A stretch of DNA of 64,000 nucleotides from Squalus acanthias (lineage: Eukaryota), in contig JASTWF010000034.1 in assembly GCA_030390025.1 (NCBI GenBank), forward strand, positions 4,650,001-4,714,000. The letters run 5' to 3'. Under the pieces are notes generated by a model. That model did no database searches and was not told the origin of the DNA. It worked only from the letters and a program-made list of their open reading frames with translations. A program made the translations under genes and the position numbers. Shown in pieces: positions 3,279 through 32,571 of this stretch; the first letter of the stretch is position 1; every line of letters starts with the position of its first letter.

Positions 3279-3284
3279 TGAAGT

Positions 3285-9350: not shown

Positions 9351-9473
9351 ACACCTCTGGCTCTATAGAATCATAGAATGGATACAGCACAGAAGGAGGC
9401 CTTACGGCCCATCGAGCCCGTGCCGGCTCTCTGCAAGAGCACTTCAGCCAGTCCCACTTATCCAATCCCCTTT

Positions 9474-10325
9474 TGATATACTCCACACCCCTCACTGTAA
9501 CACTGATATACCCCACACCCCTCACTGTAACACTGATATACCCCACACCCCTCACTGCAACACTGATATACCCTGCACCCCTCACTGTAACACTGATATA
9601 CTCCACACCCCTCACTGTAACACTGATATACCCCTCACTGTAACACTGATATGCTCCACACCCCTCACTAACACTGATATACCCCTCACTGTAACACTGA
9701 TATACCCCACACCCCTCACTGCAACACTGATATACCCCACACCCCTCACTGTAACACTGATATACCCCACACCCCTCACTGTAACACTGATATACCCCAC
9801 ACCCCTCACTGTAACACTGATATACCCCGCACCCCTCACTGTAACACTGATATACCCCGCACCCCTCACTGTAACACTGATATACCCCGCACCCCTCACT
9901 GTAACACTGATATACCCCGCACCCCTCACTGTAACACTGATATACCCCGCACCCCTCACTGTAACACTGATATACCCCACACCCCTCACTGTAACACTGA
10001 TATACCCCACACCCCTCACTGTAACACACTGATATATCCCACACCCCTCACTGTATTACTGATATACCCCACACCCCTCACTATAACACAGCAGTACCCC
10101 ACACCCCTCACTGTAACACTGATATACCCCACACCTCTCACTGTAACACTGATATACCCCACACCTCTCACTGTAACACTGATATACCCCGCACCCCTCA
10201 CTGTAACACTGATATACCCCGCACCCCTCACTGTAACACAGATATACCTTATACCCCTCAATTTAACACTGTGATATACCTCACTATAACACACGGAAAT
10301 ACCCCACAGGCCTCACAGTAACACT
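9474..10325 (+). repeat. 30-bp minisatellite (CTCACTGTAACACTGATATACCCCACACCC)
   Basis: Directly visible tandem units; gives the YSEGCGVYQC repeat ORF. Confidence 0.97.
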
Positions 10326-10332
10326 ATGCTTC

Positions 10333-10805
10333 AGTGGGGAGGTGAGCTGCTGGTTTAGTGGGGAGGTGAGCTGCTGGTTTAGTGGGGAGGTGAGCTGCTG
10401 GTTTAGTGGGGAGGTGAGCTGCTGGTTTAGTGGGGAGGTGAGCTGCTGGTTTAGTGGGGAGGTGAGCTGCTGGTTTAGTGGGGAGGTGAGCTGCTGGTTT
10501 AGTGGGGAGGTGAGCTGCTGGTTTAGTGGGGAGGTGAGCTGCTGGTTTAGTGGGGAGGTGAGCTGCTGGTTTAGTGGGGAGGTGAGCTGCTGGTTTAGTG
10601 GGGAGGTGAGCTGCTGGTTTAGTGGGGAGGTGAGCTGCTGGTTTAGTGGGGAGGTGAGCTGCTGGTTTAGTGGGGAGGTGAGCTGCTGGTTTAGTGGGGA
10701 GGTGAGCTGCTGGTTTAGTGGGGAGGTGAGCTGCTGGTTTAGTGGGGAGGTGAGCTGCTGGTTTAGTGGGGAGGTGAGCTGCTGGTTTAGTGGGGAGGTG
10801 AGCTG
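10333..10805 (+). repeat. 24-bp perfect minisatellite (AGTGGGGAGGTGAGCTGCTGGTTT) x ~19.7
   Basis: Identical tandem units from 10333 at 24-bp period. Confidence 0.99.
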
Positions 10806-11163
10806 TTATCATTCGTTGTTCTTGCCCATTGATCTCTATCAGTTTGTTCTTTACTCTCCCACACAGGAGTGTTAATTACCTGCTTCTGTAACCTTCAAAC
10901 CCTCACAGCTTCCAATTTCCTTTACAAAAGGGACTGATTCTCTGCCCACACAGCCCAGCAGTCCTCCAGACACCCTGCTGGCATTAAATTCAATCTTCAC
11001 ACTCACCTATGCTCGGCAGCAGATGTGCATCTTTCTGGAGTGTATTCTAACCTAACTTAATCCCTGGTTATTCTAGCTTAATATTGATATAATTCCATAT
11101 TTCAACCAGTGTATTATATTTAATAATCTATACATACCAATACTTACAAGAACTTTTAAAAGG

Positions 11164-11697
11164 TCAGCTTTCAGAGTGCATTCGCTTGCGCTTCAGTAGA
11201 CTGGATGACCTTGTGAATCTCTCCACACACATGGAGTGGGTCAACAGCCTCTCCCCAGTGTGTCTGCGCCGATGAATTTGCATCGGAGACGGATAATTGA
11301 ACCCCTTCTCACAGTCCCCACATTCCCACGGTTTCTCCATGGTCCATCTGTCTCTCCAGGTTGGACGATCGTTTGAAGCCTCGTCCACACACATAACACG
11401 TGTACGGTTTCTCCCCGCTGTGAATGGTGTGAAGTTTTTTCAGGCTGTGTAGCTGGTTACAGCTCTTTCCACAGTCAGTGCACTGGAACACTCTCGCTCA
11501 AGTGTCAATGGGTCTCAGTGCTTTCCCAGTCGCATGATGTGTAAAATCCTTTCCCACACACAAGAACCCGAGAAAGATTTCTCCTTCCTCATTCAAAGGC
11601 CGATGATATTCAGGTCCTGATGAATCGAGTGACTCTCAGATCTTGGCGTGATGTTTGTTTTGAGTTTCTTGTCTACAAATCCTCCCCTTCTAATACC
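11164..11697 (-). pseudogene. C2H2 zinc-finger gene terminal exon, frameshifted pseudogene
   Basis: [38 protein letters not shown] and [27 protein letters not shown] lie in different frames. Polypyrimidine/CAG acceptor at 11698-11700. Confidence 0.88.
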
Positions 11698-11913
11698 CTG
11701 AAAAAGGAGATTACAAAAGTCATCACTAAGTGCAGGACATAAATTCAGAACAGACAATTCTACTTTCTATGGAACAATCTTTCCTCTCTTGTTTCCCCCA
11801 AAAGCTGTAAATTCCTGTCCCACACACTCTCCCTCTCCCTGTGCTGAAATCCCTACCCATTGCACCATATTTTTGCCCCAACCCACTCTCTCCCTCCCTC
11901 TGCTCTCCAGCCC

Positions 11914-12447
11914 CTGTGTGCGAGGAGTGTGATGGAATACTCTCCACTTGCCTGGATGAGTACAGCTCCAACAACACTCAAGAAGCTCGACGCCATCCAG
12001 GACGAATCAGCCCGCTTGATTGACACCCCATCCACCACATGAAACATTCACTCCCTCCACCACCGGCGTACCGTGGCTGCAGTGTGTACCATCTACAAGA
12101 TGCACTGGAGCAACTCGCCAGGTCGTGATCGGTAGCAACTCCCAAACCCGCGAACTCTTCTACACAGAAGATCAAGGACAGCAGGCTCATGGGAACACCA
12201 CCACCTCCAGGTTCCCCTCCAAGTCACACACCATCCTGACTTAGAAGTATATCGTCAATCCTTCATCATCGCTGGGTCAAAATCCAGGAACTCCCTATCT
12301 AACAGCAAAGTGGGAGTACCATCACCACACGGACTGCAGCGGTTTAAGAAGGCAGCTCACCACCACCTTCTCAAGGGCAATTAGGGATGGGTAATAAATT
12401 CTGGCCTTGCCAGCGACTCCCACATCGCATAAACGAATATAAAAAGC
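11914..12447 (+). mobile_element. 3' end of a second CR1-group LINE lineage
   Basis: RSVMEYSPLAWMSTAPTTLKKLDAIQ, and a 3' end CACCACCTTCTCAAGGGCAATTAGGGATGG...ATAAAAA shared with other copies in the window. Confidence 0.8.
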
Positions 12448-12469
12448 AGCTTCTGCTGCACCTGCTCTG

Positions 12470-12990
12470 GGAGTGGGCGGCGCATGCGCCCTGATCCCGC
12501 CCTGTCCAAGATGGCGGCGCGGGGACAAGTCCCGCCTTCCTTCACCAAGATGGCGGCCGGTTGCCGGGGTAACCCGGGCCTGTCGCCGCGGAGAAATCCT
12601 CTCACAAACGGGCGGACAGTCACCCGCTCAACCCGGCGGCCGGGCCTGGCTCCGCGGCGCAAACACGGCACCCGCGGCGTCTTATTCGGGGCCTGAGCCC
12701 TACGCCCGGTGGTTTTGAAGCTCCCCAGCCCCGCCGCGGCGACTATTCCTCCCCGGCCCCCACAATGTCTTCCCACCTCTCGAGCCGCCTTTTCGGCCAT
12801 TAGTTCAACAGAAAATGACCTGAACCGTTCGCTCTGATTCTCTCGGCCCGCTGCTTTTATTGTTGTCCGCCATTACTCTTGACGTCACCACGCGTACTGC
12901 GCATGATCAGAGCACGCCCCGGTCTCGCGCCTGCGCAGTGGAGACTTGCAGTCATTGATAGGGCACTTTCTGCCGCGTGGTGGATCCTGG
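12470..12990. promoter_or_regulatory. CpG-island promoter with NRF1, YY1 and CRE motifs
   Basis: CpG-dense in a CpG-poor background. GCGCATGCGC 12480-12489; CAAGATGGCGGC 12507-12518 and 12546-12557; CCGCCATT 12867-12874; TGACGTCA 12880-12887; TGCGCATG 12898-12905; GCGCCTGCGCA 12927-12937. Confidence 0.8.
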
Positions 12991-13159
12991 GTAAACACAC
13001 TGCCATTGAAAGTTCCAATTGCTGAAGAGATCATTCACATTTTCAGATTGGGCCTTTGTTCACTACCTGTAGGCGGCTAACATTAAGTTGCCCCATTTTC
13101 ACTAGACGTGGACATAAACCAATAAGGCAAGTGTCCCAGCACACCACAAATATCCAGTA

Positions 13160-13263
13160 ACAGTTCTGACGAAGGGCCCTGGACCCGAAACGTTGACTCT
13201 GTTTCTCTCTGCTCGATGCTGCCTGACCTACTGAGTGTTTCCGACATGTTCTGTTGTTATTCC
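13160..13263 (+). ncRNA. Solo Penelope-like terminal repeat with minimal hammerhead ribozyme motif
   Basis: AGTT-CTGACGA-AGGGCCCTGGACCC-GAAACGTT-GACT matches the CUGANGA/stem II/GAAA/palindromic stem III layout. The downstream sequence is homologous to the Penelope 3' end at 23340-23445. Confidence 0.65.
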
Positions 13264-13728
13264 TGTAATAAGTATGTACAATACACCCAAACACACAAAT
13301 AATAATTAAATCACAATGTGACAGTGAGGATCGATTATCACCTCACTGAGCTACGGTGCCCACCGGGCACCTCAGGTAATGATACAGAGGCTGCAACCTC
13401 TCACACTGAAAATACATATGGATCATGGACTCCTCAAGGCCGTAAAAACACGGCTGGAATTGTGCCTACCTGGCAGGTCCGGTGCGGGCGGTGGCAATCG
13501 CGGGTCGTCAGCCCGCTGCTGAAAATGACTTTACGTTAGTCGGACCTATTGAGCCCACCCAGCGTGTTACCCGGTCCAATTAAATGATGCGGGTCTGGAC
13601 TGTTGACATCGTTGATTAAGCGTTTTCAGCCGGGATCTTTAAGGGGCCATGGCCACATTGGACTTGAATGTCAATGTAACATACTGCTGTCAGTGCACTA
13701 CAGCATTGGATTGCTGCAAACACTAACA

Positions 13729-15270
13729 ATGACTGCACAGAGGCAGAGGGCTGCACCCAGGTTGTCTGATGGCTCCCTCCATATGCTTATGAAGGGAGTC
13801 AAAGCATTCAGGGTGGTCCTCTTCTCTTCCAATGGACAGATGTGACCTCCCCAGGACACTAAAACAGCCTGGTTGGAGATTGCAGAGGGGGTCACCAGCA
13901 GGGATGTTGTCAGCAAGACCTGGGTGCAGTGCCGCAAACGTTACAATGATCTCATTAGATCAGGAAACGTGAGTACAAAGCCACACTCACCTTCCTCTTG
14001 CTATGCCTCTCATCACACCCCCATCACTCTGCCTTCCCAACCCTACCCCTGCACATTCTTACTCACACCAACATACCCTGCACGTCCACCCGTCCCTCTC
14101 TTTCTATTTACATTATCACATCCCCATTTCAATAGCCACCGCTCACACTGACACTCACCCTTGTGCAATCATACCAACTAACAACACACAAGGAGGCCAC
14201 TTGTATTTGGCACCCCACTCCATCATAGTCACCATCTAAATATCTACCACATCCATTCCTTACATTCATTCCATCAGTCTCACTCAAACTTCTCTTTTTT
14301 CCCTCCTTGCAGGAAAAGAGAGCCCACAATAACAGGGAGAAGGGGTGAACCGGCGGTGTCAGTCCATCATTTACAAACCTTACAATAGCAGAGGAGGCTG
14401 CTTTAGAAATATCTGGAGTCGCTGAGCAGCTGGAGGTGGGAGATGGAGCGAGGGGGACATCTCAGCAACCGGGTGACAGAATTACATATCATACAGCAAC
14501 ATGGCATACATCCATCACTCAAATGGGCACTGATCTCACTGAATGGTCATCATGTACATAATGGTATCTGTACCCATTGTTCATATGACATATCTAACTC
14601 ATATCTTCACTCTCCCACAGGTCCATCAAGAGTTTCCCCCCCCCCTCCAATGTCCAGGAGGAAGAGGAAGATGACTCCTCAGAGGAGCCTCAGCCGCTGA
14701 GGGTTCACCATCACAAGAATTAGATAGAGTAGTGTTGTCAACTGGTGTCTCCCAATTCACAAGTGTGCAAGAGGAGATGGTGGAGAGAGGGAGAGCAGTG
14801 GAGTCTCCTTGCTAGAGGGCGCAGGACGCTCCCAGCTCTGCTCAGCTGCATGCAGACGCTGAGCCTCGGGGGCCATCTAGAAAGAGGGCGACCCTGGAGA
14901 TGCAGCAAGAAGTGCAGGGGGCTCTGACAGGTATTGCGAGCGCGATGTCTGCAAATTTTCAGAGAATGGAGTAGTCAATCACCAACATGAGCACCACCTT
15001 GTCACAGGCGATGGTGACTGTAGGCTCCTCCATGGATAGGATGGGCAGCTGCATGGAGCAGCTAATGCGCCACTCAGAGGAGCACATGGTCTTTATGGAG
15101 GATAGATGGCTATTTATAGAGAATAGATGGCAGAGGCTCATAGACCTCCTCTCTAACAGGGATGTCAGCATAGACGTGGGTCCTCATGGCCTCACTGCTG
15201 TGCAATAAGGTGCTCTACACCTCCTTGGCAGCAGGGAAGTGAGCAGGCTGCCTTTACCTCTGCTGAAGCC
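13729..15270 (+). pseudogene. Myb/SANT-like DNA-binding protein gene of Harbinger type, 3 exons (13729-13968, 14313-14472, 14621-~15270), with premature stops
   Basis: MTAQRQRAAPRLSDGSL...AWLEIAEGVTSRDVVSKTWVQCRKRYNDL, then GTGAGT donor and TTGCAG acceptor, EKRAHN...TGG. In-frame TGA at 13843-13845 and in exon 2. Confidence 0.8.
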
Positions 15271-15321
15271 ACAGGGCTATCTCCTCGTAGATGCATGCAG
15301 AAGAGAAAGATGACACAGAAG

Positions 15322-15998
15322 TTTAAGAGCTTTATGATCTCTCAGAGTTCTTGGACAAGACACCAATAGGCAGCAGCCAGTATGTTTGATCAATAGATAA
15401 AGATTTATTAAGCTTACAGCGTAATAGACTGAACAGCAGGCGATAGTTTAACGAGTAGCTCGCAGCCCTTGGACTCTGGAACCTCTCGGACACAAGTGAC
15501 GTCGTCTTCAGTCCGTTCCTTTGTTCTTGCAGTGGGTCTGTGTAATGTTGTTGTTCCAGTTTTCAGTGTTTAACCCATTTCTTATCAAAAGTTCGTTTGG
15601 TCTTTGTCCATATATGGTCTTTAACAAAATCACTATTTTAATTGGTTCTAATGAACAAAATACCATTGTCACTCAGACTATGTTTAGCATCCTGGCGTCA
15701 CCTTTCCAGTATTTTTCCTACAACGTTACCCTGTTCATCGTTATCTTGTTTATAGTTCTTCACCCCATTGGAATTGACCTTATCTCTCACATTTCTAGCT
15801 TCCCTGGTACAGGCAGTACAAGAACTCATAAACTGCGTAAGCTGCGATACTGTCCGTTATCAGAGCTAGTCTTGACTAGTCCTGGCTGTCTTTGCAGTTA
15901 CATTTTGAGCAAGCCTCAGCAATTTATGCACAAGTCATTACAGGTCACACTGAATATAGATATTTGGTTAATGTGAAGATCACTATTCTACACTCACA
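15322..15998 (-). mobile_element. Probable solo LTR inserted in the Harbinger element
   Basis: The mirror copy 24614-25290 begins TG and ends CA with short inverted termini and has AATAAA ~90 bp from its end. No clear target-site duplication. Confidence 0.45.
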
Positions 15999-17127
15999 CT
16001 AAAACATGTTATTGCTAAAAACAACCAAGTATCAGTCTTTTCTACACACGTATGATTCACAAGGGTAGCCACTTGGGTGTTTTATCGAATGTTTATGTAA
16101 AGTTTCCATTAATGTGCTGTCAAACATCAAAATCCATATTTTCAACACTTTCCGGTCTTGGACAGATGTGTGTGCACCTTTGCAAGTGGGTTCATGAGTT
16201 GCAGTGAATGGTGAGACATAACGGTACCTCCAGCAATGGTGGTGAGTGTGAAAGGAATGCCTTGGTCTTTGCAGGGATGCTTTTCGGTGTTGCTGTGGGG
16301 TAGTGCCATCCTGGAGCATCATATGGCAGCTGTAAGGGTGTACAGCATCAAGTGAAGTAAATCTGGCCATGGTGAGCACAGCCCTAGCCTGCCGGACAGC
16401 AATGTGCTCGGGTGCTGATGCGCTCTGTCCTCTGCAGCATCAAGTAATTGCGGAGAATGTTGGTGTTGTTGGTGCTGATGGTGTGCCTGATGCTGCTGGT
16501 GTTGGGGCTCATCGTGATCAGATTCTGAGGACCAAGGTGAGACAGTATAAACGGCATCCATGCTGATGGAATCGATGGCAGGTGAAGTAGAGATGACAGA
16601 AGCAATCTGACAATGTGGGAGAGGTTCCTCCAATGAGGTGACACTGGATGGAGACTTTGCTGGAAAGACTGCAGCCTGCAGAATCTGTGCTGGGAATGCA
16701 ATGAGAAACAGCTTCTGCTGAGGAAAGTGATCATCTGTCAGGTGGGAGTTTTTATACTATATTTGATGCTGACAAGTAATCAGCTGGAGCAATGGCCACT
16801 GAACTCCCGCCTCAGGTGGACAGACGTGGTTCCCGAACAGCGAGCATACCGTGGCCATCCTGTTCAATTTAAAAGGTAAGGTTAAAACCAGTCTTAAAGG
16901 TCTGACAACTAGCTACTGATAATTTAAACAGAAAATGGTGGAAATCAGCATTTTCTGTGGTGGTAGCGGGCGTGATCGGAGGCGGGTCCGGTGGGAAAGT
17001 TGTTATTTCTGTGAACGGGTCGGGACCCCACTGTCATCCCGCTCCCACGCACCTGTCCCCCAGGTGCGTCTGTCAGCGTGGATCCGCCCTGACCGGCAGA
17101 GGTGGGCGACCCAATTTCAATTATTGT

Positions 17128-18141
17128 ACAAAAGCAAAATACTGCGGATGCTGGAAATCTGAAATAACAACAGAAAATGCTGCAAGTACTCAGCAGGTCA
17201 GGCAGCATTTGTGGAGAGAGAATCAGACTTCATGTTTCAGGTCGAGGACCCTTCGTCAGAACTGGAAAAAGTTGGAGATGGAACAGGTTTTTAAGTCAGT
17301 CTAGGGGCAGGGAAAGGGGGAGGGGAGAAAAGAACAAATGTGAAGGTCTGTGATAGGATGGAAGGCAGGAGAGATTAAGAGACAAAAGGGATGATGGTGC
17401 AAGTCAAAAGGAGATGGTAATGGGACAAATTAAGAAACAAAAGATGACTCTAGATGAAGTGTAAATGGCAATGGCAGAATGATCGAGAGCTGCCGTGTGA
17501 GAGAGAGAAAAAATGAACAAAATGGTAGGAGCAGAGGTTATGGTCTGAAATTGTTCAACTCGATGTTGGATTCAGAAAACTGTAAAGTGCCTAATCGAAA
17601 GATGATGTGCTGATCCTTGAGCTTATGTTGAGCATCATTGGAACAGTAGAAGAGGCCGAGGATGGAGAGATCAGAGTGGGAGTGGAGCGGAGTTTAAGGT
17701 GACAGGCGACCGGAATCTCGGGGTCACACTTGCAGACTGAACAGAGGTGTTTCGCAAAGCGATCACCCAATGTACGTTTGGTCTCCACAGTGTACAGGAA
17801 ACTGCATCGTGAGCAGCGAATACAGTATACTAAATTGCAAGAAGTACAAGCAAATCGCTGTTTCACCTGAAAGGAGTGTTTGGGGCCCTGGACAGTGAGA
17901 AGGGAGGAGATAAAAGGGCAGGTGTTGCATCTCCTGTGCTTGCACGGGAAGGTGCCTGGCGAAGGGGAAGGGGTGTTGGCGGTGAAAGAGGAGTGGACCA
18001 GGGAGTCGCGGAGGGAGCGGTCCCTTCAGAATGCTGAAAGGGGAGGTGAGAGGAAGATGTGTTTGGTGGTGGGATCATGCTGGAGGTGGCGGAAATGGCG
18101 GAGGATGATCCGCTGAATGTGGAGGCTGGCGGGGTAAAAGG
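17128..18141 (-). mobile_element. Penelope-like element 3' part (GIY-YIG endonuclease region, hammerhead-type terminus, tail)
   Basis: FACTSCNLVYCIRCSRCSFLYTVETKRTLGDRFAKH; rc CTGACGAAGGGTCCTCGACCTGAAAC at ~17234-17259. Confidence 0.88.
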
Positions 18142-18149
18142 TTTTTTTT

Positions 18150-18236
18150 TTCAATATCCTCTCTGACCTTTCCCTCTCTGACCCCGAAGGCCGAGCTTCA
18201 TTCTCTTACGCCCCCAGTTCAATAAGTTTTAAGCTC
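18150..18236 (+). mobile_element. Penelope-like element N-terminal fragment (5' piece of the element resuming at 21409)
   Basis: Translates as FNILSDLSLSDPE...SFILLRPQFNKF, resembling the LSxxE..GLxFxP motif upstream of Penelope RT. Confidence 0.55.
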
Positions 18237-21200
18237 AGCATTCGGAACAAGGTGGATGAATTAGCTGCGCAAATACAGGTAAATTAACATGATTTGATTG
18301 GGATTACCGAAACAAGGCTCCAGGTTTGCCAAGGCTGGGAACTCAACATCCAGAGGTACTCAATATTCAGGAAAGATAGGCAAACTGGAAAGGGAGGTGG
18401 GGTAGCATTGCTGGTTAAACAGGGGATTAACACAATTGAAAGGAAGGATATTAGCTCTGATGATGTGGAATCTGTATGGGTTGAACTGAGAAATAACAAG
18501 GGGTAGAAAACGTTAGTGGGAGTGATATATAGATCTCCAAACAGTAATGCGGAGGTTGGGGATGGCATTAAAAGGGAAATTAGAGATGCGTTCAATGAGG
18601 GCACAGCAGTCATCATGGGTGACTTTAATCTACATATAGATTGGACTAACCAAATTAGTAACAATACTATGGAGGAGGAATGCCTGGAGTGTTTAGGGGA
18701 TGGTTTCCTGGACCAATATGTCGAGGAACCAACCAGAGATCAGGCCATCTTACACTGGGTATTATGCAATAAGAAAGGATTAATTAGCAATCTTGTTGTG
18801 CGAGGCCCCTTGGGTCGGAGCAATCATAATATGATAGAATTCTTCATTAGGATGGAGAGTGAAGTAGTTGACTCAGAGATTAGGGTCCTGAATTTGAATA
18901 AAGGAAACTAGGATGGTATAAGGTGCGAGTTGGGTAGGATTAATTTGGGAATGTCACTCAAAGGGTTGATTTGTGGATAGGCAATGGCAAACATTCAAGG
19001 ACTGCATGGACGACCTACAGAATTTGGTCATCCCAGTTTGGCATAAGAATAAAACAAAAAGGGTGACTCAACCGTGGCTAACAAGGGAAATTAGGGATAG
19101 CATAAGATCTAAGGAGAGGGCATATAAATTGGCCAGAAAAAGCAGTAACCCTGAGGATTGGGAGCAATTTAAGATTCAACAAAGGAGGACAAAGGGATTA
19201 ATTAAGAAAGGGAAAATAGAATATGAGAGTAAGCTTAAAGGGAACATTAAAACTGACTGTAAAAGCTTTTATAGATATGTGAAGAGAAAAAGATTAGTGA
19301 AATCAAGCATAGGTTCCTTGCAGTCACAATCAGGGGAACTTATAATGGGGAACAAAGAAATGTCACACCAAATAAATACATATTTTGGTTCTGTCTTCAC
19401 AAAGGAGGACACAAATAACCTCCCAGATATGTCGGGGAACATAGGGTCTAATGAGAGGGAGGAACTGAAAGAAATCAGTAATTGTAGGGAAATGGTGTTA
19501 GGGAAATTGACGGGATTGAAGGCCGATAAATCCCCAGGGCCTGATAATCTACATCCTAGGGTACTTAAGGAAGTGGCCCTGGAAATAGTAGATGCATTGC
19601 TGATCATCTTCCAACATTCGATGGAATCTGGAACAGTACCCATGGATTGGAGGGTAGCTAATGTTACCCCACTATTCAAAAAGGGTGATAGAGAGAAAAC
19701 ATGGAATTACAGACCGGTAAGCCTGACATCAGTAGTGGGGAAAATGCTAGAGTACATTATAAAAGATGTAATAGCAGAGCACTTGGAAAACAGTGACAGG
19801 ATCGGACAAAGTCAACATGGATTTACAAAACTTAAATCATGCTTGACTAATCTACTGGAACTCTTGAGGATGTAACTAATAAAATAGATAAGGGAGAAAC
19901 AGTAGATGTGGTGGATTTGGACTTGCAAAAGGCTTTTTAATAAGGTCCCGCATAAAAGATTAGCGTGTAAAGTTAAGGCATATGGGTTTGGGGGCAAGGT
20001 ATTGATTTGGATAGATAACTGTTTGGCAGACAGAAAGCAAACAGTTAGAATAAATGGGTCTTTTTCCGAGTGGCAGGCAGTGACTAGTGGGGTACCGCAG
20101 GGGTCGGTCCTTGGACCCCAGCTCTTCACAATATACATTAATGATCTAGTCAAGGGAACTGGATGTACTATCTCCAAGTTTGCAGACGACACAAAGCTGG
20201 GTGTGCTGCGAGGAGGATGCCGAGAAACTCCAGGATGATTTGGACAGGTTGGGTGATTGGGCAGCAGCGTGGCAGATGCAATATAACGTGGATAAATGCG
20301 AGGCTATCTACTTTGGTGTCAAAAGCAGAAAGTCAGATTATTATCTCAATGGCAATAGATTGGGAGAAGGGGAATTGCAACGACCTGGGTGTCCTTGTGC
20401 ACCAGTCGCTGAAGGTAAGCATGCAGGTGCAGCAGGCGGTTAAGAAGGTAAATGGCATGTTGGCCTTCATAGCGAGAGGGTTTGAGTACAGGATCAAGGA
20501 TGTCTTGCTGCAGCTGTACAGGGCCTTGGTGAGACCACACCTTGAGTACTGTGTGCAGTTTTGGTCGCCTTATCTGAGGAGGGATGTTCTTGCCATGGAA
20601 GGAGTTCAGCGAAGATTCACAAGGCTGATACTCGGGATGGCAGGAATGACATATGAAGAGAAATTGGTTTGATACTCACAGAATCCCCACAGTGCAGATA
20701 GAGGCCATTTCGGCCCATCGAGCCTGCACTGACACATATCCCACCCTATCCCCGTAACCCCACGTGTTTAATCCCATCCTAACACTAAGGGTCAATTTAT
20801 CATAGCCAAATCAACCTAACCCGCACATCTTTGGACTGTGGGAGGAAACCGGAGCACCCGGAGGAAACCCACGCAGACACGGGGAGAATGTGCAAACTCC
20901 ACACAGACAGTCACCTGGGTCCGGATTCGAACCCGGGTCCCTAGCGCTGTGAGGCAACAGTGCTAACCACTATGCCACCGTACTCGCTGGAGTTTAGAAG
21001 AATGAGAGGGGTTCTCATTGAAACTTATAAAATTCTGACAGGACAGGAAAAACTAGATGCAGGAAGGATGTTTCCAATGGTCGGGGAGTCCAGAACCAGG
21101 AGTCACAGTCGAAGGATAAGGGGTAAGCCAGTTAGGACAGAAATGAGGAGGAATTTCTTCACCCTGAGAGGGGAGAACCTGTGTAATTCTCTGCCACAGA

Positions 21201-21408
21201 AGGCAGTAGAGGCCAATTCATTAAATATATTCAAGCAGGAGTTGGATATATTTCATAATGCTAAAGGGTTCAAGGGATATGGGGAGAAAGCAGGGACAGG
21301 GTACTGAATTTGGATGATCAGCCATGATCGCATTGAATGGCAGAGCAGGCTAGAGGGGCCGAATGGCCTACTCCTTCTTCTATCTTCTATGAGTCTATGA
21401 GTCTATGA
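18237..21408 (+). mobile_element. CR1 LINE ORF2, degenerate, inserted in the Penelope element within the palindrome spacer
   Basis: [56 protein letters not shown]; (GAGTCTAT)n tail ending ~21408. Confidence 0.95.
20678..20980 (-). mobile_element. tRNA-derived SINE (HE1/V-SINE type) nested in CR1
   Basis: A box TGGCATAGTGG, B box GGTTCGAATCC, V-domain-like TGCGTGGGTTTCCTCCGGGTGCTCCGGTTTCCTCCCACA. Flanked by TACTC direct repeats at 20673-20677 and 20981-20985. Confidence 0.9.
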
Positions 21409-23477
21409 GATCCAAACCCCAACATTGTCATTAAACCTGCTGACAAGGGTGGTGCTGCTGTTGTTTGGCGAACCGACCTCTACCGTGCGGAGGCTGAACG
21501 CCAATCTCCGACACCTCCTCCTCTGACCTCCGCCTGGACAATGGCCCCACCACCGAACATCAAGCCACCATTTCCTAGACTATCACTGGCCTCATCTCCT
21601 CTGGAGATCTTCCCTCCACGGCCGACAGCCTCATAATTCCCCAACCCCGCACAGCCCTCTTCTACCTCCTTCCCTAGATCCACAAACAGGTCTCCTGGTA
21701 GACGCATCGTTTTAGCCTGTCCTTGCCCCACGGAAAGTAACTCTTCCGATCTCGACTCTATTTTTTCTCCACTTGTCCACTCTCTTCCCTCTACATCCGC
21801 GACTCTTCCGACGCCCACTGCCACTTTAACAGTTTCCAGTTTCCTGGCCCCAACCGTCTCCATTTCACAATGGATGTCCAATCCCTCTACACCTCCATCC
21901 CCCACCAGGACGGCCTGAGGGCTCTCCGTTTCTTCCTTGAACAGAGGCCCAACCAGTCCCGATCCACCACCACCCTCCTCCGCCTGGCTGAACTTCTTCT
22001 CACATTGAACAACTTCTCCTTTGACTCCTCTCAGTTCCTCCAAATCAGAGGTGTTGCTATGGGAACCCGTATGGGTCCCAGCTATGCCTGCCTTTTCGTG
22101 GGATATGTGGAACATTCTTTGTTCCAGTCCTACTTAGATCCCCGCCCTCACCTCTTTTTCTGGTACATTGATGAATGTATCGGTGCTTTTTTACTGCTCT
22201 CGCCCTGAACTAGAAAATGTCATTCCCTTTGCTTCCAATCTCCACCCTTCCCTCACCTTCACATGGTCCATCTGTGGCTCTTCCCTGCCCTTCCTTGACT
22301 TCCCCGTCTCCATCTCTGGGGATAGGTTATTAACAAACATTCACTGTAAGCCCACTGACTCCCACAGCTACCTGGACTACACTTCCTCACACCCCGCTTC
22401 CTGTTAGGACTCTATTCCATTCTTCCAATTTATCTGTCTCCTCTGCATCTGCTCTGACGATGCCACCTTCCATACTAGTGCTTCCGACATGTCTTCCTTT
22501 TTCAACAACCGAGGATTCCGCTCTACTGTGGTTGACACGGCCCTTGACCGTGTCCGTTCTATTTCCCGCACTTCTGCTATCACCCCTTTCCCTCCCTCCT
22601 GGAACCACGATAGGGTTCCCCTTGTCCTCATCTTTCACCCCACCAGCCTCCACATTCAACAGATCATCCTCCGCCATTTCCGCCACCTCTAGCGTGATCC
22701 CTTTCAGCATTCCAAAGGGAATACTCTCTCCAAAACATCCTGGCCCACTCCTCTATCACCCCCAACAACCCGCTGCACTTCCCACGGCAGCTTCCATGGA
22801 AGCCTGTACACTGGGGAGATCAAACGCACATTGGGTGACCGCTTTGCGGAACACCTCCCTGCAGTCTGTAAGGGTGATCCCGAGCTTCCGGTCGCCTGTC
22901 ACCTTAATTCTCCGCTCCACTCCCACTCTGACCTCTCCGTCCTCGGCCTCTTATACTGTTCCAATGATGCTCAACGTAAGCTCAAGGATCAGCACCTCAT
23001 CTTTCGATTAGGCACTTTACAGCTTACTGGACTCAACAATAATTTCAACAATTTCAGACCATAACCTCTGCCCCTACCATTTTGTTCATGTTTTCTCTCT
23101 CTCACATGGCAGCTGTCGATCATTCTGCCATTGCCATTTACACTTCATCTAGAGTCATCTTTTGTTTCTTAACTTGTCCCATTACCATCTCCTTTTGCCT
23201 TGCACCATCATCCCTTTTGTCTCTTAATCTCTCCTGCCTTCCATCCTAACACAGACCTTCACATTTGTTCTTTCCTCCCCTCCCCCCTTTCCCTGCCTCT
23301 ACACCTGCTTAAAAACCTGTTCCATCTCCAACTTTTTCCAGTTCTGACGAAGGGTCATCGACCTGAAACATGAACTCTGATTCTCTCTCCACAAATGCTG
23401 CCTGACCTGCTGAGTACTTCCAGCATTTTCTACTTCTACTTCAGATTTCCAGCATCCGCAGTATTTTGCTTTTGTAC
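21409..23477 (+). mobile_element. Penelope-like element (RT, partly deleted GIY-YIG, hammerhead-type 3' terminus), degenerate
   Basis: NIVIKPADKGGA, MDVQSLYTSIPH, GVAMGTRMGPSYACLF, WYIDE, LPFLD, KPTDSHSYL, LGDRFAEH; CTGACGAAGGGTCATCGACCTGAAAC at ~23344. Confidence 0.92.
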
Positions 23478-24613
23478 TAATAATTGAAATTGGATCGCTC
23501 GCCTCTGCCGGTCAGGGCGGATCCACGCTGATAGACGCACCTGGGGGACAGGCGCGTGGGAGCGGGATGACAGTGGGGTCCCGACCCGTTCGCAGAAATT
23601 ACAACTTTCCCACCGGACCCGCCTCCGATCGCGCCCGCTACCACCCCAGAAAATGAGTATTTCCAGCATTTTCTGTTTAAATTATTAGTAGTTAGCTGTC
23701 AGACCTTTAACAGTGGGTTTAACCTTACCTTTTAAATTGAACTGGATGGCCACGGGTTGCTCGCTGTTCGGGAACCACGTGTGTCAACCTGAGGCAGGAG
23801 TTCAGTGGCCATTGCTCCAGCTGATTACTTGTCAGCATCAAATGTAGTATAAAAATTACCACCTGACTAATGATCACCTTCCTCAGCAGAAGCTGTTTCT
23901 CACGGCATTCTCAGCACAGATTCTGCAGGCTGCAGTCTTTCCAGCAAAGTCTCCATCCAGTGTCACCTCATTGGGAGAACCTTTCCCACATTGACAGATT
24001 GCTTCTGTCATCTCTACTTCACCTGCCATCTATTCCATCAGCATGGATGCCGTTTATACTCTCTCACCTTGGTCCTCAGAATCTGATCACGATGAGCCCC
24101 AACACCAGCAGCGCCAGGCACACCATCAGCACCAACAACACCACCAACCTTCTCCGCAATCACTTGATGCTGCAGAGGACAGAGCGCATCAGCACCCGAG
24201 AACATTGCTGTCCGGCAGGCCAGGGCTGGCTCACCATGGCCAGATTTACTTCACTTGACGCTGTACACCCTTACAGCTGCCACATGATGCTCCAGGTTGG
24301 CACCACCCCACAGCAACACCGTAAAGCATCCCTGCAATGACCAAGCCATTCCTTTCACACTCACCACCATTGCTGGAGGTACCGTTATGTCCCACCATTC
24401 ACTGCAACTCATTAATCCACTTGCAAAGGTGCACACACATCTGTCCAAGACCGGAAAGTGTTGAAAATATGGATTTTGATGTTTGACAGCACATTAATGG
24501 AAACTTTACATAAACATTCGATAAAACACCCAAGTGGCTACCCTTGTGAATTATACTTGTGTAGAAAAGACTGATACTTGGATGTTTTTAGTAATAACAT
24601 GTATAAGTATAAG

Positions 24614-25290
24614 TGTGAGTGTAGAATAGTGAACTTCACATTAACCAAATATCTATATTCAGTGTGACCTGTAATGACTTGTGCATAAATTGCTGAGGCT
24701 TGCTCAAAATGTAACTGCAAAGACAGCCAGGACTAGTCAAGACTGGCTCTGATAACGGACAGTATCGCAGCTTACGCAGCTTATGAGGCCTTGTACTGCC
24801 TGTACCAGGGAAGCTAGAAATGAGAGAGATAAGGTCAATCCAATGGGGTGAAGAACTATAAACAAGATAACGATGAACAGGAAAAAGTTGTAGGAAAAAT
24901 ACTGGAAAGGTGAGGCCAAGATGCTGAACTTAGTCTGAGTGACAATGGTATTTTGATCATTAGAGACAATTAAAATAGGTGATTTTGTGAAAGACCATAT
25001 ATGGACAATGCCCAAACGAACTTTTGATAAGATATGGGTTAAAACCTGGAAACTGGAAAAACAACTTTACACAGACCTACTGCAAGAACAAAGGAACAGA
25101 CTGAAGATGACGTCACTTGTGTCCGAGAGGTTCCAGAGTCCAAGGGCTGCGAGCTACTCGTTAAACTATCGCCTGCTGTTCAGTCTATTACGCTGTAAGC
25201 TTAATAAATCTTGATCTATTGCTCAAACATACTGGCTGCTGCCTATTGGTGTCTTGTCCAAGAACTCTCAGAGATCATAAAGATCTTACA
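24614..25290 (+). mobile_element. Probable solo LTR (mirror copy)
   Basis: TGTGAG...CTTACA termini, AATAAA at ~25203. Confidence 0.45.
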
Positions 25291-25334
25291 CTTGTGTGTC
25301 ATCTTTCTCTTCTGCATGCATCTACGAGGAGCTA

Positions 25335-26878
25335 GCCCTGTGGCTTCAGCAGAGGTAGAGGCAGCCTGCTCACTTCCCTGCTGCCAAGGAGGTGTAGAGC
25401 ACCTTGTTGCACAGCAGTGAGGCCATGAGGACCCACGTCTATGCTGACATCCCTGTTAGAGAGGAGGTCTATGAGCCTCTGCCATCTATTCACTATAAAT
25501 AGCCATCTATCCTCCATAAAGACCATGTGCTCGTCTGAGTGGCGCATTAGCTGCTCCATGTAGCTGCCCATCCTATCCATGGAGGAGCCTACAGTCACCA
25601 TCGCCTGTGACAAGGTGGTGGTCATGTTGGAGATGGATTCCTCCATTCTCTGAACATTTGCAGACATCGCGCTCACAAAACCTGTTAGAGCCCACTGCAC
25701 TTTTGCTGCTCCTCCAGGATCGCCCTCTTTCTGGATGGCACCCGAGGCTCAGCGTCTGCATGCAGCTGAGCAGAGCTGGGAGCATCCTGCGCCCTCCGGC
25801 AAGGAGACTCCACTGCTCTCCCTCTCTCCACCATCTTCTCTTGCACACTTGTGAGTTGGGAGACACCAGTTGACAACACTACTTTATCTATGTCTTGTGA
25901 TGGTGCACCCTCAGCGGCTGAAAGCTCCTCTGAGGAGTCATCTTCCTCTTGCTTCTGGACATTGGAGGGGGGAACTCTTGATGGACCTGTGAGAGAGTGA
26001 AGATATGAGTTAGATATGTCATATGAAGAATGGGTACAGATACCATTATGCACATGATGACCATTCAGTGAGATCAGTGCCCATTTGAGTGATGGATGTA
26101 TGCCATGTTGCTGTATGATATGTAATTCTGTCACCAGGTTGCTGAGATATCCCCCTCGCTCCATCTCACACCTCCAGCTGCTCAGCGACTCCAGATATTT
26201 CTAAAGCAGCCTCCTCTGCTATTGTATGGTTTGCAAATGATGGAGTGCCACCGCCGGTTCACCCCTTCTCCCTATTATTGTGGGCTCTCTTTTCCTGCAA
26301 GGAGGGAAAAAAGAGAAGTTTGAGTGAGACTGATGGAATGAATGTAAGGAATGGATGGGTTAGATATTTAGAGGGTGACTATGATGGAGTGGGGTGCCAA
26401 ATACATGTGGCCTCCTTGTGTGTTGTTAGTTGGTATGATTGCACAAGGGTGAGTGTGAGTGTGAGGGGTGGCTATTGAGATGGCGATGTGATAATGTAAA
26501 TAGAAAGAGAGGGACGGGTGGACGTGCAAGGTATGTTGGTGTGAGTAAGAATGTGCAGGGGTAGGGTTGGGAAGGCAGAGTGATGGGGGTGTGATGAGAG
26601 GCATAGCAAGATGAAGGTGAGTGTGGCTTTGTACTCACGTTTCCTGATCTAATGAGATCATTGAAACGTTTGGGGCACTGCACCCAGGTCTTGCTGACAA
26701 CATCCCTGCTGGTGACCCCCTCTGCAATCTCCAACCAGGCTGTTTTAGTGTCCTGGGGAGGTCACATCCGTCCATTGGAAGAGAAGAGGACCACCCTGAA
26801 TGCTTTGACTCCCTTCATAAGCATATGGACTGAGCCATCAGACAACCTGGGTGCAACCCTCTGCCTCGGTGCAGTCAT
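25335..26878 (-). pseudogene. Myb/SANT-like Harbinger gene, mirror copy, same premature stops
   Basis: MTAPRQRVAPRLSDGSV...EIAEGVTSRDVVSKTWVQCPKRFNDL. Confidence 0.8.
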
Positions 26879-27343
26879 TGTCTGTGTTTGCATCACTCCA
26901 GTGCTGTGGTGCACTGACAGCAGTATGTTCCATTGACATTCAAGTCCAATGTGGCCATGGCCCCTTAAAGATCCCGGCTGAAAACGCTTAATCAACGATG
27001 TCAACAGTCCAGACCCGCATCATTTAATTGGACCGGGTAACACGCTGGGTGGGCTCAATAGGTCCGACTAACGTAAAGTCATTTTCAGCAGCGGGCTGAC
27101 GACCCGCCATTGCCACCGCCCGCACCGGACCTGCCAGGTAGGCACAATTCCAGCCGTGTTTTTACGGCCTTGAGGAGTCCATGATCCATATGTATTTTCA
27201 GTGTGAGAGGTTGCAGCCTCTGTATCATTACCTGAAGTGGCCGGTGGGCACCGCAGCTCAGTGAGGTGATAATCGATCCTCACTGTCACATTGTGATTTA
27301 ATTATTGTTTGTGTGTGTGGCTGTATTGTACATACTTATTACA

Positions 27344-27447
27344 GGAATAACAACAGAACATGTTGGAAACACTCAGCAGGTCAGGCAGCATCGAGGAGAG
27401 AGAAACAGAGTCAACGTTTCGGGTCCAGGGCCCTTCGTCAGAACTGT
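27344..27447 (-). ncRNA. Solo Penelope terminus with minimal hammerhead motif (mirror copy)
   Basis: Reverse complement of 13160-13263; core motif identical. Confidence 0.65.
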
Positions 27448-27619
27448 TACTGGATATTTGTGGTGTGCTGGGACACTTGCCTTATTGGTTTATGTCCACG
27501 TCTAGTGAAAATGGGGCAACTTAATGTCACCCCACTACAGGTAGTGAACAAAGGCCCAATCTGAAAATGTGAATGATCTCTTCACCAATTGGAACTTTCA
27601 ATGGCGGTGTGTTTACCCA

Positions 27620-28140
27620 GGATCCGCCGCGCGGCAGAAAGTGCCCTATCAATGACTGCAGGATTCCACTGCGCAGGCGCGTGACCGCGGCGTGCTCTGA
27701 GCATGCGCAGTACGCGTGGTGACGTCAAGAGTAATGGCGGACAACAATAAAAGCGGCGGGCAGAGAGAATCAGAGCGAACGGTTCAGGTCATTTTCTGTT
27801 GTACTAATGGCCGAAAAGGCGGCTCGAGAGGCGGGAAGACATTGTGGGGGCCGGGGAGGAATAGGCGCCGCGGCGGGGCTGGGGAGCTTCAAAAACACCG
27901 GACGTAGGGCTCAGGCCCCGAATAAGACGCCGTGGGTGCCGTGTTTGCGCCGCGGCGCCAGGCCCGGCCGCCGGGTTGAGCGGGGTGACTGTCCGCCCGT
28001 TTGCGAGAGGATTTCTCCGCGGCGAGAGGCCCGGGTTACCCCGGCAACCGGCCGCCATCTTGGTGAAGGAAGGCGGGACTTGTCCCCGCGCCGCCATCTT
28101 GGACAGGGCGGGATCAGGGCGCATGCGCCGCCCACTCCCA
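27620..28140. promoter_or_regulatory. CpG-island promoter (mirror copy)
   Basis: TGCGCAGGCGC, GCATGCGCA, TGACGTCA (27720-27727), AATGGCGG, two GCCGCCATCTTG and GCGCATGCGC. Confidence 0.8.
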
Positions 28141-28159
28141 GAGCAGGTGCAGCAGAAGC

Positions 28160-28695
28160 TGTTTTTTATATTCGTTTCTGCGATGTGGGCGTCGCTGGCA
28201 AGGCCAGAATTTATTACCCATCCCTAATTGCCCTTGAGAAGGTGGTGGTGAGCTGCCTTCTTAAACCGCTGCAGTCCGTGTGGTGATGGTACTCCCACAT
28301 TGCTGTTAGTTAGGGAGTTCCTGGATTTTGACCCAGCGATGATGAAGGATCGGCGATATACTTCTAAGTCAGGGTGGTGTGTGACTTGGAGGGGAACTTT
28401 GAGGTGGTGATGTTCCCATGAGCCTGCTGCCCTTGTTCTTCTATGTAGAAGAGTTCGCGGGTTTGGGAGGTGCTACCGATCACGACCTGGCGAGTTGCTG
28501 CAGTGCATCTTGTAGATGGTACACACTGCAGCCACGGTACGCCGGTGGTGGAGGGAGTGAATGTTTCATGTGGTGGATGGGGTGTCAATCAAGCGGGATC
28601 ATTTGTTCTGGATGGCGTCGAGCTTCTTGAGTGTTGTTGGAGCTGTACTCATCCAGGCAAGTGGAGAGTATTCCATCACACTCCTCGCACACAGG
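28160..28695 (-). mobile_element. 3' end of second CR1-group LINE lineage (mirror copy)
   Basis: Reverse complement of 11914-12447. Confidence 0.8.
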
Positions 28696-28919
28696 GGCTG
28701 CAGAACTGGAGAGCAGAGGGAGGGAGAGAGTGGGTTGGGGCAAAAATATGGTGCAATGGGCAAGGATTTCAGCACAGGGAGAGGGAGAGTGTGTGGGACA
28801 GGAATTTACAGCTTTTGGGGGAAACAAGAGAGGAAAGATTGTTCCATAGAAAGTAGAATTGTCTGTTCTGAATTTATGTCCTGTACTTCGTGATGACCTT
28901 TTGTAATCTCCTTTTTCAG

Positions 28920-29615
28920 GGTATTAGAAGGGGAGGATTTGCAGACAAGAAACTCAAAACAAACATCACGCCAAGATCTGAGTCACTCGATTCATCAGGA
29001 CCTGTTTATCATCGGCCTTTGAATGCGGAAGGAGAAATCTTTCTCTGTTCTTGTGTTTGGGAAAGGATTTTACACATCATGCGACTGGGAAAGCACTGAG
29101 ACCCATTCACACTTGAGCGAGAGTGTTCCAGTGCACTGACTGTGGAGAGAGCTGTAACCAGTTACACAGCCTGAAAAAACTTCGCACCATTCACAGCGGG
29201 GAGAAACCGTACACGTGTTCTGTGTGTGGACGAGGCTTCAACCGATCGTCCAACCTGGAGAGACAGATGGACCATGGAGAAACCGTGGGAATGTGGGGAC
29301 TGTGAGAAGGGATTCAATTATCCGTCTGAGATGCAAATTCATCGGTGCAGTCACACTGGGGAGAGACTGTTGACCTGCTCTGTATGTGGGAAGGGATTCA
29401 GTCGGTCACCCATCCTGCTGAAACATCAGCGAGTTCACACTGACGAGAGACCGTTCAGTTGCTTTCACTGTGGGAAGAGATTCACTTATCCCACCTCATT
29501 GAACACCAGCATGTTCACACTGGAGAGAATCCGTTCACCTGCTCCATGTGTGCGAGGGGATTCACAAGGTCATCCAGTCTGGTGAAACGCAAGCGAATAC
29601 ACTCTGAAAGCTGAC
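28920..29615 (+). pseudogene. C2H2 zinc-finger terminal exon, frameshifted pseudogene (two more fingers than left copy)
   Basis: CTTTTTCAG acceptor 28918-28919; [32 protein letters not shown] and [16 protein letters not shown] in broken frames. Confidence 0.9.
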
Positions 29616-29972
29616 CTTTTAAAAGTTCTTGTAAGTATTGGTATGTATAGATTATTAAATATAATACACTGGTTGACATATGGAATTATATCAATATTAA
29701 GCTAGAATAACCAGGGATTAAGTTAGGTTAGAATACAGTCCAGAAAGACGCACATCTGCTGCCGAGCATGGGTAAGTGTGAAGATTGAATTTAATGCCAG
29801 CAGGGTGTCTGGAGGACTGCTGGGGAGTGTGGGCAGTGAATCAGTCCCTTTTGTAAAGGACATTGGAAGCTGTGAGAGTTTGAAGGTTACAGAAGCAGGT
29901 AATTAACACTCCTGTGTGGGAGAGTAAAGAACAAACTGATAGAGATCAATGGGCAAGCACAACGAATGATAA

Positions 29973-30229
29973 CAGCTCACCTCCCCACTAAACCAGCAGC
30001 TCACCTCCCCACTAAACCAGCAGCTCACCTCCCCACTAAACCAGCAGCTCACCTCCCCACTAAACCAGCAGCTCACCTCCCCACTAAACCAGCAGCTCAC
30101 CTCCCCACTAAACCAGCAGCTCACCTCCCCACTAAACCAGCAGCTCACCTCCCCACTAAACCAGCAGCTCACCTCCCCACTAAACCAGCAGCTCACCTCC
30201 CCACTAAACCAGCAGCTCACCTCCCCACT
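29973..30229 (-). repeat. 24-bp perfect minisatellite x ~10.7 (mirror copy)
   Basis: CAGCTCACCTCCCCACTAAACCAG units. Confidence 0.99.
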
Positions 30230-30236
30230 GAATCAT

Positions 30237-30447
30237 AGTGTTACTGTGAGGCCTGTGGGGTATATACCTTACAGTGAGGGGTGTGGGGTATATCAGTATT
30301 ACAGTGAGGGGTGTGGGGTATATCAGTGTTACAGTGAGGGGTGTGGGGTATATCAGTGTGTTACAATGAGGGGTGTGGGATATATCAGTGTTACAATGAG
30401 GGGTGTGGGGTATATCAGAGTTACAGTGAGGGGTGTGGAGTATATCA
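30237..30447 (-). repeat. 30-bp minisatellite (short mirror copy)
   Basis: TACAGTGAGGGGTGTGGGGTATATCAGTGT units. Confidence 0.95.
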
Positions 30448-30617
30448 AAAGGGAATTGTATAAGTGCCCGAAGGAAAGCAATTGCAGGGCTCTGGGGAAA
30501 GGGCGGGGGAGTGGGACTTGCTGAAGTGCTCTTGCAGAGAGCCGGCACGGGTTCGACGGGCCGTAAGGCCTCCTTCTGTGCTGTAACCATTCTATGATTC
30601 TATAGAGCCAGAGATGT

Positions 30618-31700
30618 ACAACAACAATAACTTGTATTTAAATAGAGCCTTTAACGTAGTAAAACGTCCCAAGGCGCTTCACAGGAGTATTTTCAGACAA
30701 ACAATTTTGACATTGAGCCACATCAGGATAAATTCGGACAGGTGACTAAAAGCTTGGTCAAAGTGGAAGGTTTTAATGAGCGTCTTCAAGGAGGAAAGAG
30801 AGGGGGCGAGGCGGAGAGGTTTAGGCTAGGAATTCCAGAACTTAGGGCCCAGGCAACAGAAGGCACGGCCACCAAATGTTGAGTGATTATAATCAGGGAA
30901 GCTCAAGAGGGCAGAATTAGAGGAGCGCAGATATCTCGGGGGTGTTGTGGGGCTGAAGGAGATTCGAGATAGGAAGGGGCGAGGCCATGGAGGGATTTGA
31001 AAACAAGGATGAGAATTTTGAAATCGAGGTGCTGCTTAACCGGGAGCCAGTGTAGGTCAGCAAGCACAGGGGAGATGGGTGAACGGGACTTGGTACGAGT
31101 TAGGACATGGGCAGCCGAGTTTTGGATGGCCTCAAGATTACATAGGGTGGAATGTGGGAGGCCAGCCAGGAGTGCGTTGGAATAGTCAAGTCTAGAAGTA
31201 ACAAAGGCATGGATGAGGGTTTCAGCAGCGGATGAGAGGAGGCAAGGGCGGAGACGGGCGATGTTACGGAGGTGGAAGTAGGCGGTCTTTGTTATGCTGC
31301 GGATATGTGGTCGGAGGCTCATTTCAGGGTCAAATATGACACCAATGTTGCGAACAGTGTGGTTCAGCCTCAGACAGATGTTAGGGAGAGGGATTGAGTC
31401 TGTGGCTCGGGAACGGTGTTTGTGGCAGGGTCGAAAACAGTGGCTTCGGTCTTCCCAATATTTATTTGGAGAAACTTTTGCTCATGTCCGTCAAGCAGTC
31501 TGACAATTTAGACACCGTGGAGGGGTCAAGAGAAGAGGTAGTGAGGGAGAGCTTGGTGTCGTCAGCGTACAGATGGAAACTGACTGTGTTTCTGGATGCT
31601 GTCACCAAGGGGCAACATGTAGATGAGAAATAGGAGGGGGGCAAGGAGAGATCCTTGGGGGACACCAGAAGTAACGATGCAGGAGCAGGAAGAGAGGCTA
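30618..31700 (-). mobile_element. L2 LINE 3' fragment (mirror copy)
   Basis: AETLIHAFVTSRLDYSNALL, HLYADDT. Confidence 0.93.
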
Positions 31701-32084
31701 ACTGATATTCTGATCCTTTCCGCACAGTATGATCCCAGCCCCAGACGCTTCCCTCTCTGTGGGGAGAGAGAGAGAGAGGCAGAGACAGTGAGGGAGCAGA
31801 TACGTAGAGAAGGAAAGAAATACTGGGGTGGTGTTTGACGTTTAGTAGGTGCTATAGTACAAACTGGGTAATTGTGAAACAGCCACCCATTTTACACCGA
31901 TGGAAATAAAACTCGGGAGAGATGTAGGGCAGGATCCCGGTTCATTCCCGGAGACGGGGCTGATTGTACACCCTGTGTTCATGCCCAGTGAGACTGCACA
32001 CCAGGAGCAGAGCCTGGTCAATGTGACCCTGTGACACCTCGAGTGGGAGGGGCTCCGGCCGCTTTGTGACATCGTTTCTGGCTG

Positions 32085-32571
32085 CTGTGTGATGTCACCT
32101 GGAGACAGGGCCCTGCCCCTGGTTACGGCCCATCAGTGGGATGTCAGTGTGGGAGGAGCTGGAGTGACAGCTGACACTGGGGGTGAGTTTAGTCCCAATA
32201 AACAGGGCAAAGGGCTGAAAGGAACAATTTAATATTAAAGTAAGTAATTTAAACACACTGATTAATTGCAAAAATAATGAAATTGAATATAATTATGGTC
32301 ACAAAAATGCTCCCCCTGTATTCTGGGATTAATATGAATCATTTTTCTATTGACAGTCTCTGGGAGTGAGCAATATCTCAGGAAGGTGGAGAGAGAAGTC
32401 GAATCATCGCCTCACTGACTGGGACTGGAGAAATGTCGCTGTGTTCACAGAGCAGATCTGGTGGGATCGAGACCCCCAGTGTCGGAGACGGGATAAAACG
32501 GGAAGCTTCAACAATGATTGGAAAGGTGAGGAACTTTACTGAGAATCCCATCAGTCCAGGATATTGCTGAG
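32085..32571 (+). pseudogene. 5' cassette of unidentified gene, copy 2 (exon 1 ends 32182; exon 2 32357-32571; ATG 32433; in-frame TGA 32568-32570)
   Basis: GGG|GTGAGT, TTGACAG|, GAG|GTGAGA; mirror of 7406-7900. Confidence 0.5.

Follow-up and report, generated by a model that had tools for sequence, protein, structure and literature searches.

The large palindrome in the window (the whole stretch of 64,000 nucleotides analysed here) is centred on two dead copies of a Penelope-like element (PLE), placed head to head. In the reading that we favour, an older head-to-head PLE provided a 1-kb inverted repeat that much later templated the duplication of the flank; we give this a probability of roughly 45%. 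The architecture, the divergence gradient and the shared target site can be read directly from the DNA, and from these we infer the timing. The parts of the locus are as follows.

1..17125, no strand: left arm outside the PLE; mirrors 23479-40887 and continues beyond the window
11164..11700, minus strand: fragment of a C2H2 zinc-finger gene that is broken in each arm; the left copy lacks 164 bp
12400-12950: CpG-rich promoter-like stretch near the C2H2 fragment
13450..17125, no strand: Myb/SANT-coding element, the target flank of the PLE (Myb_DNA-bind_5, E 9e-4, below cut-off)
17127..18142, minus strand: inverted 3' PLE copy with tail, hammerhead-like remnant, GIY-YIG domain and linker; one stop and a frameshift
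17918..17944, minus strand: CX4CxxC linker zinc-finger motif, seen in the translation upstream of the GIY-YIG core
18142..18151, no strand: head-to-head junction, a T10 run, from the sequence and a loose contig end at 18142
18143..18236, plus strand: 5' piece of the forward PLE (N-terminal region), covered by family contigs in 4/4 runs
18237..21408, plus strand: 5'-truncated CR1 LINE coding for a broken endonuclease and reverse transcriptase (RT), 11.5% diverged from its relative at 44539-47387
20678..20980, no strand: insert of 0.3 kb within the CR1, flanked by 5-bp direct repeats
21409..22629, plus strand: RT region of the forward PLE, unmirrored spacer, from protein comparison
22630..23477, plus strand: 3' part of the forward PLE, mirror of 17127-18142 without 31 bp and 140 bp
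22790..22803, no strand: perfect 14-bp palindrome at the junction of the 140-bp deletion; the left copy has only a quasi-palindrome
23340..23376, plus strand: degraded hammerhead-like core with stem II, fold z 0.86, not better than shuffles
23479..40887, no strand: right arm outside the PLE, mirrors the left arm

The limits of the two copies were set with family contigs from four public runs aligned to 16700-18330, runs with a word share below 0.2 being left out. These contigs end at 17127-17130 and carry other letters past 18142, so the minus copy has its natural 3' end and is 5'-truncated, and the minus-strand 3' part that the first-pass annotation had placed beside a T10 run is refined to 17127-18142, with the run itself at 18142-18151. 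One contig has a G at 18144 and two fewer T in the junction run, which probably combines T runs native to each copy with slippage rather than being a poly(A) tail. The plus-strand 5' piece, proposed to begin at 18150, is borne out by protein comparison: 18150-18229 is colinear with aa 75-87 and 96-107 of protein P0001, a score reached by 0/300 shuffles, in a best-hit heuristic in which one of five proteins gave a colinear match and the four others none. In a 919-aa relative the DKG motif lies at aa 328; about 130 aa precede this motif in the forward copy, which is therefore 5'-truncated too. It does pick up again at 21409 (about aa 196) after the CR1, as proposed, but the insertion was not clean: some 85 codons (about 250 bp) of PLE were lost at the 5' junction of the CR1. 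The CR1 holds a further 0.3-kb insert, which we take to be SINE-like and which had no database match. The 140-bp deletion in the right copy removes the GIY/CxxC endonuclease core, and the 14-bp palindrome at its junction looks like the product of snap-back templated repair. Both 3' tails point outward, as had been claimed, and are joined to a single flanking sequence at sites that agree to within 1 bp. About 1 kb of inverted repeat encloses a spacer of 4,487 bp, of which 1,315 bp are PLE, the spacer having measured about 1.6 kb before the CR1 arrived. Palindromes of the Tetrahymena rDNA type arise from a short repeat with a short spacer, and the proposed analogy with them fails on these dimensions.

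The DKG motif in 21409-21633 identifies a PLE-type RT, which shares 67-76% identity with chondrichthyan PLE-type proteins, the closest coming from sharks and rays, and on this basis the DNA was treated as chondrichthyan-like. The GIY-YIG domain is recognized in the left copy: this aligns by tblastn to the GIY-YIG part of protein P0010, which hits Pfam PF01541 above cut-off, and its translation shows the CxxC and both His of the CCHH motif, while the window's ORFs alone gave no GIY-YIG Pfam match. A CX2-5CxxC linker between RT and endonuclease is described as a trait of Neptune and Nematis that is absent in Penelope and Poseidon (PMC8557442), and because a CX4CxxC linker precedes the GIY-YIG core here, the motif points to a Neptune/Nematis-type element rather than a Penelope/Poseidon one. 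The Rfam comparison of the window gave no hammerhead match and nothing at gathering level, with two chance hits at the centre.

The head-to-head layout itself is ordinary for these elements. Among the best 80 of 361 related loci, taken from metagenome contigs and not evidently from sharks, 17 had enough sequence on both sides, and five of those 17 carry such a unit, with 7-20% divergence between its copies. The first-pass claim that PLEs often integrate with an inverted partial copy at their 5' end thus agrees with our counts and with the literature, where the arrangement is called typical (PMC3846280, PMC8557442). In all five units symmetry ends 154-223 bp past the ORF end and the flanks are never mirrored (0/5), a weak negative because short-read contigs would hide long palindromes; by these comparisons the layout appears to be common and usually inert. 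Canonical inverted-pLTR units (Pen2a_Av, Naiad/Neptune) resemble the present one in having an inverted, 5'-truncated copy at the forward 5' end and 3' tails that point outward, but as described in these two sources they have a different flank on each side and often a target-site duplication, whereas here a single flank is mirrored for at least 17 kb. Outside the 17 eligible loci, an inverted copy (91%) lies 4.8 kb upstream of one related PLE (L068:3376-14513), whose 3' part holds an insert with inverted ends and whose symmetry appears not to reach the flanks. The PLE DNA pattern had 0 matches in metagenome contigs, a comparison of the PLE protein alignment with viral contigs turned up no relative, and the other genomes scanned held no look-alike stretch of the locus.

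By self-BLAST the inverted arms pair window positions 1 to about 17800 with 22803-40887; with the PLE copies included, the full mirror pairs 1-18142 with 22630-40887, which gives arms of at least 18 kb, the left one running off the window. Outside tandem arrays the arms differ by 4.25% over 13,800 columns (587 substitutions, 95.75% identity), with a substitution spectrum that resembles that of other repeat pairs, no bin above 9% and a longest run without difference of 177 bp. Indels between them consist of tandem-array copy number, small gaps and the 164-bp loss in the zinc-finger fragment, and no arm-specific transposon insert was seen in the roughly 14 kb aligned per arm. Besides the zinc-finger fragment and the Myb/SANT-coding element, the arms contain old CR1 pieces and an L2-like element that has a third copy. 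Measured against that copy, the L2-like element has 31 left-private and 33 right-private changes, a balance that argues for two real, aged arms and not an assembly fold-back, and 59 further sites are shared by the arms or specific to the third copy, so the element had aged before the arms parted. The arms are mildly patchy (five divergence clusters against a shuffled mean of 1.1 and maximum of 4; variance ratio 2.0 versus 1.5 for an unpaired CR1 pair), as gene conversion between them would give.

The symmetry had been thought to break exactly inside the PLE. The centre is indeed PLE, but there is no single break point: the symmetry runs through the whole minus copy, across the 140- and 31-bp deletions of the right copy, and fades in steps to L18142/R22630. 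A change point at L17554 (2dLL 60.8) separates 4.25% divergence outside from 14.15% in the inner 417 columns. From the flank inward, mismatches number 21/430 (17126-17555), 10/24, 6/136 and 12/82, then 24/101 and 7/72 in the innermost zones; with the ambiguous deletion alignment left out, the innermost count is 21/137 (p 4e-7), and inner divergence is about 15-18%. The 24 columns at 17556-17579, with their 10 mismatches amid otherwise arm-level sequence, are either an island spared from copying or a mutation cluster. A crossover at the 17554 change point was considered and rejected, as five of the eight polarised sites in 17556-17799 are shared and 17580-17715 lies at arm level; the mosaic of this interval means that no single clean crossover fits.

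Whether a stretch was copied late can be judged from shared mutations, as copies made at insertion share no later mutation and copied stretches do. The left copy departs from the family majority at 131 places, of which family contigs allowed 40 to be polarised; 36 of these 40 lie in 16700-18142, and six of the 36 fall in stretches absent from the right copy. Shared and left-private sites number 2 and 3 in the flank, 4 and 8 in 17126-17555, 5 and 3 in 17556-17799, and 0 and 5 in 17930-18142. The innermost part thus has 0/5 shared sites against 11/25 further out (one-sided p 0.08, not significant). At codons conserved among 18 relatives, shared changes number 0/30 innermost and 5/40 in the middle zone (p 0.054), and some of these calls may be species differences. 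Innermost codon changes are lopsided, with nine right-private and no left-private among the 30 codons, an excess that may partly reflect local damage or hypermutation beside the two deletions. Shared derived sites reach 17795, well within the repeat, and stop at the 140-bp deletion. This pattern is suggestive, short of significance, of copying that reached inward to about the 140-bp deletion and of an innermost 170 columns that have been independent since approximately the time of insertion. The proposal that the inverted PLE predates the arms and may have seeded them therefore gains from the divergence step and the missing innermost shared changes, but the tests reach only p 0.05-0.08 and conversion can mimic the result.

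Under the favoured two-step history, a Neptune/Nematis-type PLE would first have inserted head to head, as an inverted, 5'-truncated 3' copy plus a 5'-truncated forward copy, leaving a 1-kb inverted repeat around a 1.6-kb spacer that the CR1 would later have entered. Long afterwards, one side would have suffered a break or a stalled fork that let the two copies anneal, through sister-strand annealing or a long-loop fold-back, and synthesis would have run outward through the PLE tail into the flank, so that a mirror of at least 17 kb would have replaced the other original flank. The exchange point would fall within the repeat, with the surroundings of the 140-bp deletion (L17800-17940) as its probable site; further outward, repair would have been patchy or conversion would have followed later. 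The PLE would have acted as passive DNA homology, its own endonuclease not being required. In yeast, inverted repeats with 1-kb spacers are reported to form inverted dimers, mainly by annealing between sisters, with spacing or heterology of up to 25% tolerated in single-stranded DNA (PMC6103520, PMC10164571).

The two-step history draws on the divergence step together with the lack of any innermost shared derived change, on the absence of an original second flank with both tails at the same site, on the ageing of the L2-like element before the arms parted, and on the frequency of head-to-head units in the clade. The two inserts in the spacer and none specific to an arm likewise fit arms younger than the PLE unit; the chance of such a distribution is about 0.007, a rough figure that holds if all parts were equally exposed and unconverted. 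Against it, a similar pattern would result from arm-to-arm conversion combined with rearrangement of the centre, and the shared-change tests are not significant, being based on those 40 places. The lopsided inner excess, the mosaic at 17556-17799, the patchiness of the arms and the abundance of the PLE family weigh against it as well.

The strongest competitor, which we regard as unlikely though a serious contender, makes the PLE a bystander: a plain aged element in which a chance fold-back break fell, or an older palindrome whose centre was deleted with ends in two PLE copies, conversion and local damage accounting for the gradient. Palindrome centres are described as prone to rearrangement, with spacer deletions that mostly end in the arms (PMC8327919). 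The family is also very abundant (at least about 2,500 contigs with loose ends at the PLE 3' terminus among the matches listed for run X1), so a chance hit would not be rare; derived sites are shared as far in as 17795, the inner excess sits mostly on the right copy beside its two deletions, the arms show their mild patchiness, and the region has other duplicated units (7006-7898 resembling 40930-41866). Yet with a bystander PLE, derived changes should be shared as far in as the junction, where the innermost counts are 0/5 and 0/30, and this reading needs both break ends to fall in one 2.5-kb element and to yield exactly the canonical PLE layout found in 5/17 relatives.

A formation of the palindrome during the insertion itself seems to us improbable. 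The PLE endonuclease would have cut one site, and the replicated sister ends, each elongated from the element's 3' end, would have been joined head to head, giving arms as old as the PLE that conversion later homogenised. Such an event would place both tails at one target site and leave the innermost parts with no shared derived change; in the cell models described, L1 gives rise to fold-back junctions that contain reverse-transcribed inserts (PMC11702581), and an anole PLE is reported to cleave and extend both strands in vitro (PMC11167929). Conversion would, however, have had to lower some 15-18% divergence to 4% over 18 kb and equalise every later insert, and this is hard to match with a longest identical run of only 177 bp and no non-array arm bin above 9%. 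An assembly artefact, whether from a read folded back on itself or from two haplotypes joined in opposite orientation, is very improbable given the 587 substitutions with an ordinary spectrum, the 164-, 140- and 31-bp indels and array copy-number differences between the arms, and the balanced private changes, even though the T10 junction with 31 letters on each side is spanned by no contig among the matches listed (32 of about 191,800), a lack that we did not count against the structure.

Each ingredient of the two-step history has already been described (head-to-head PLEs, repeat-mediated fold-backs and retroelement-filled fold-back junctions). Our searches of the open-access literature brought up no account of a large palindrome centred on a PLE. 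Inverted dimers and fold-backs in yeast likewise show spaced, diverged inverted repeats templating a large inverted duplication by annealing, but from engineered repeats and with unstable dicentric products in the work cited (PMC6103520, PMC10164571), whereas the present case is natural, assembled and aged, with its outer junction beyond the window. In the L1 fold-back junctions, too, an inverted duplication has retroelement-derived sequence at its centre, in one case as two inserts in inverse orientation, but those reported (PMC11702581) are somatic, involve an APE-type enzyme and poly(A) and are made at insertion; here the element is a GIY-YIG PLE and the insert looks older than the arms. 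Mammalian sex-chromosome palindromes share arms above 8 kb, a kilobase spacer and a rearranged centre, but they are described as holding above 99% identity by ongoing conversion around intact genes (PMC8327919), against 95.75% and broken zinc-finger copies here, so that the identity falls below the primate X definition of conversion-maintained palindromes (arms above 8 kb, identity above 99%). In Drosophila virilis, Penelope is likewise tied to rearrangement and has copies with long inverted repeats, but the account drawn on here reports a cytological coincidence with inversions and describes no palindromic flank duplication (PMC3681739).

The origins of large palindromes are poorly documented because their centres are usually erased, and if the two-step history is true, the locus would be a readable germline case of a retroelement inverted repeat seeding a palindrome and would offer a cheap genome-wide test in sharks; at present it is one locus with dead genes. 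The earlier suggestion that PLEs are a palindrome-generating system is accordingly kept as a testable lead resting on this one locus. It is a long shot that head-to-head PLE units, which insertion makes routinely and which abound in sharks, repeatedly seed large germline palindromes and inverted duplications of genes (here in a zinc-finger cluster), in which case PLE content would predict where inverted segmental duplications occur and an active PLE endonuclease, cutting the tail of the element in trans, might supply the break.

The flank element at the insertion site is presumably Harbinger-like, and its left boundary (13450) was set by eye. In 4/4 runs, contigs connect 16917/16928 with 17125/17114 of the opposite strand, and the element therefore has inverted ends there, one of which lies at most 3 bp from the PLE 3' end. 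An origin of the palindrome by alternative transposition of a DNA transposon was set aside on the reasoning that, in each arm, the ends of the element border the PLE tails and do not mark the outer limits. Runs X1 and X6 each have one contig that aligns over 16950-17156 and crosses from the flank-element end into the PLE tail (by 27 and 31 letters); over about 205 bp these contigs show 33-34 differences, versus 14/208 for the right arm, and they are possibly a third, older copy of the junction or an independent insertion, and a candidate ancestral allele. No orthologous pre-duplication allele was present among the contig pieces listed.

Further repeats surround the centre. A promoter-like unit occurs in three copies of mixed orientation (7006-7898, 32081-32796 and 40930-41866; 83-90%), which mark the region as duplication-rich, with earlier duplications. 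A 24-bp tandem array at 10333-10805 has 19.7 copies at 100% identity and 10.7 copies in the other arm; it is a minisatellite that is young or actively turning over. The CR1 copy at 44539-47387 lies between two 47-bp tandem arrays (42742-48856) and was apparently inserted into one array. A 100-bp piece of PLE tail only is present in both arms (13161-13261 and 27346-27446), with 81-84% identity to the central tails.
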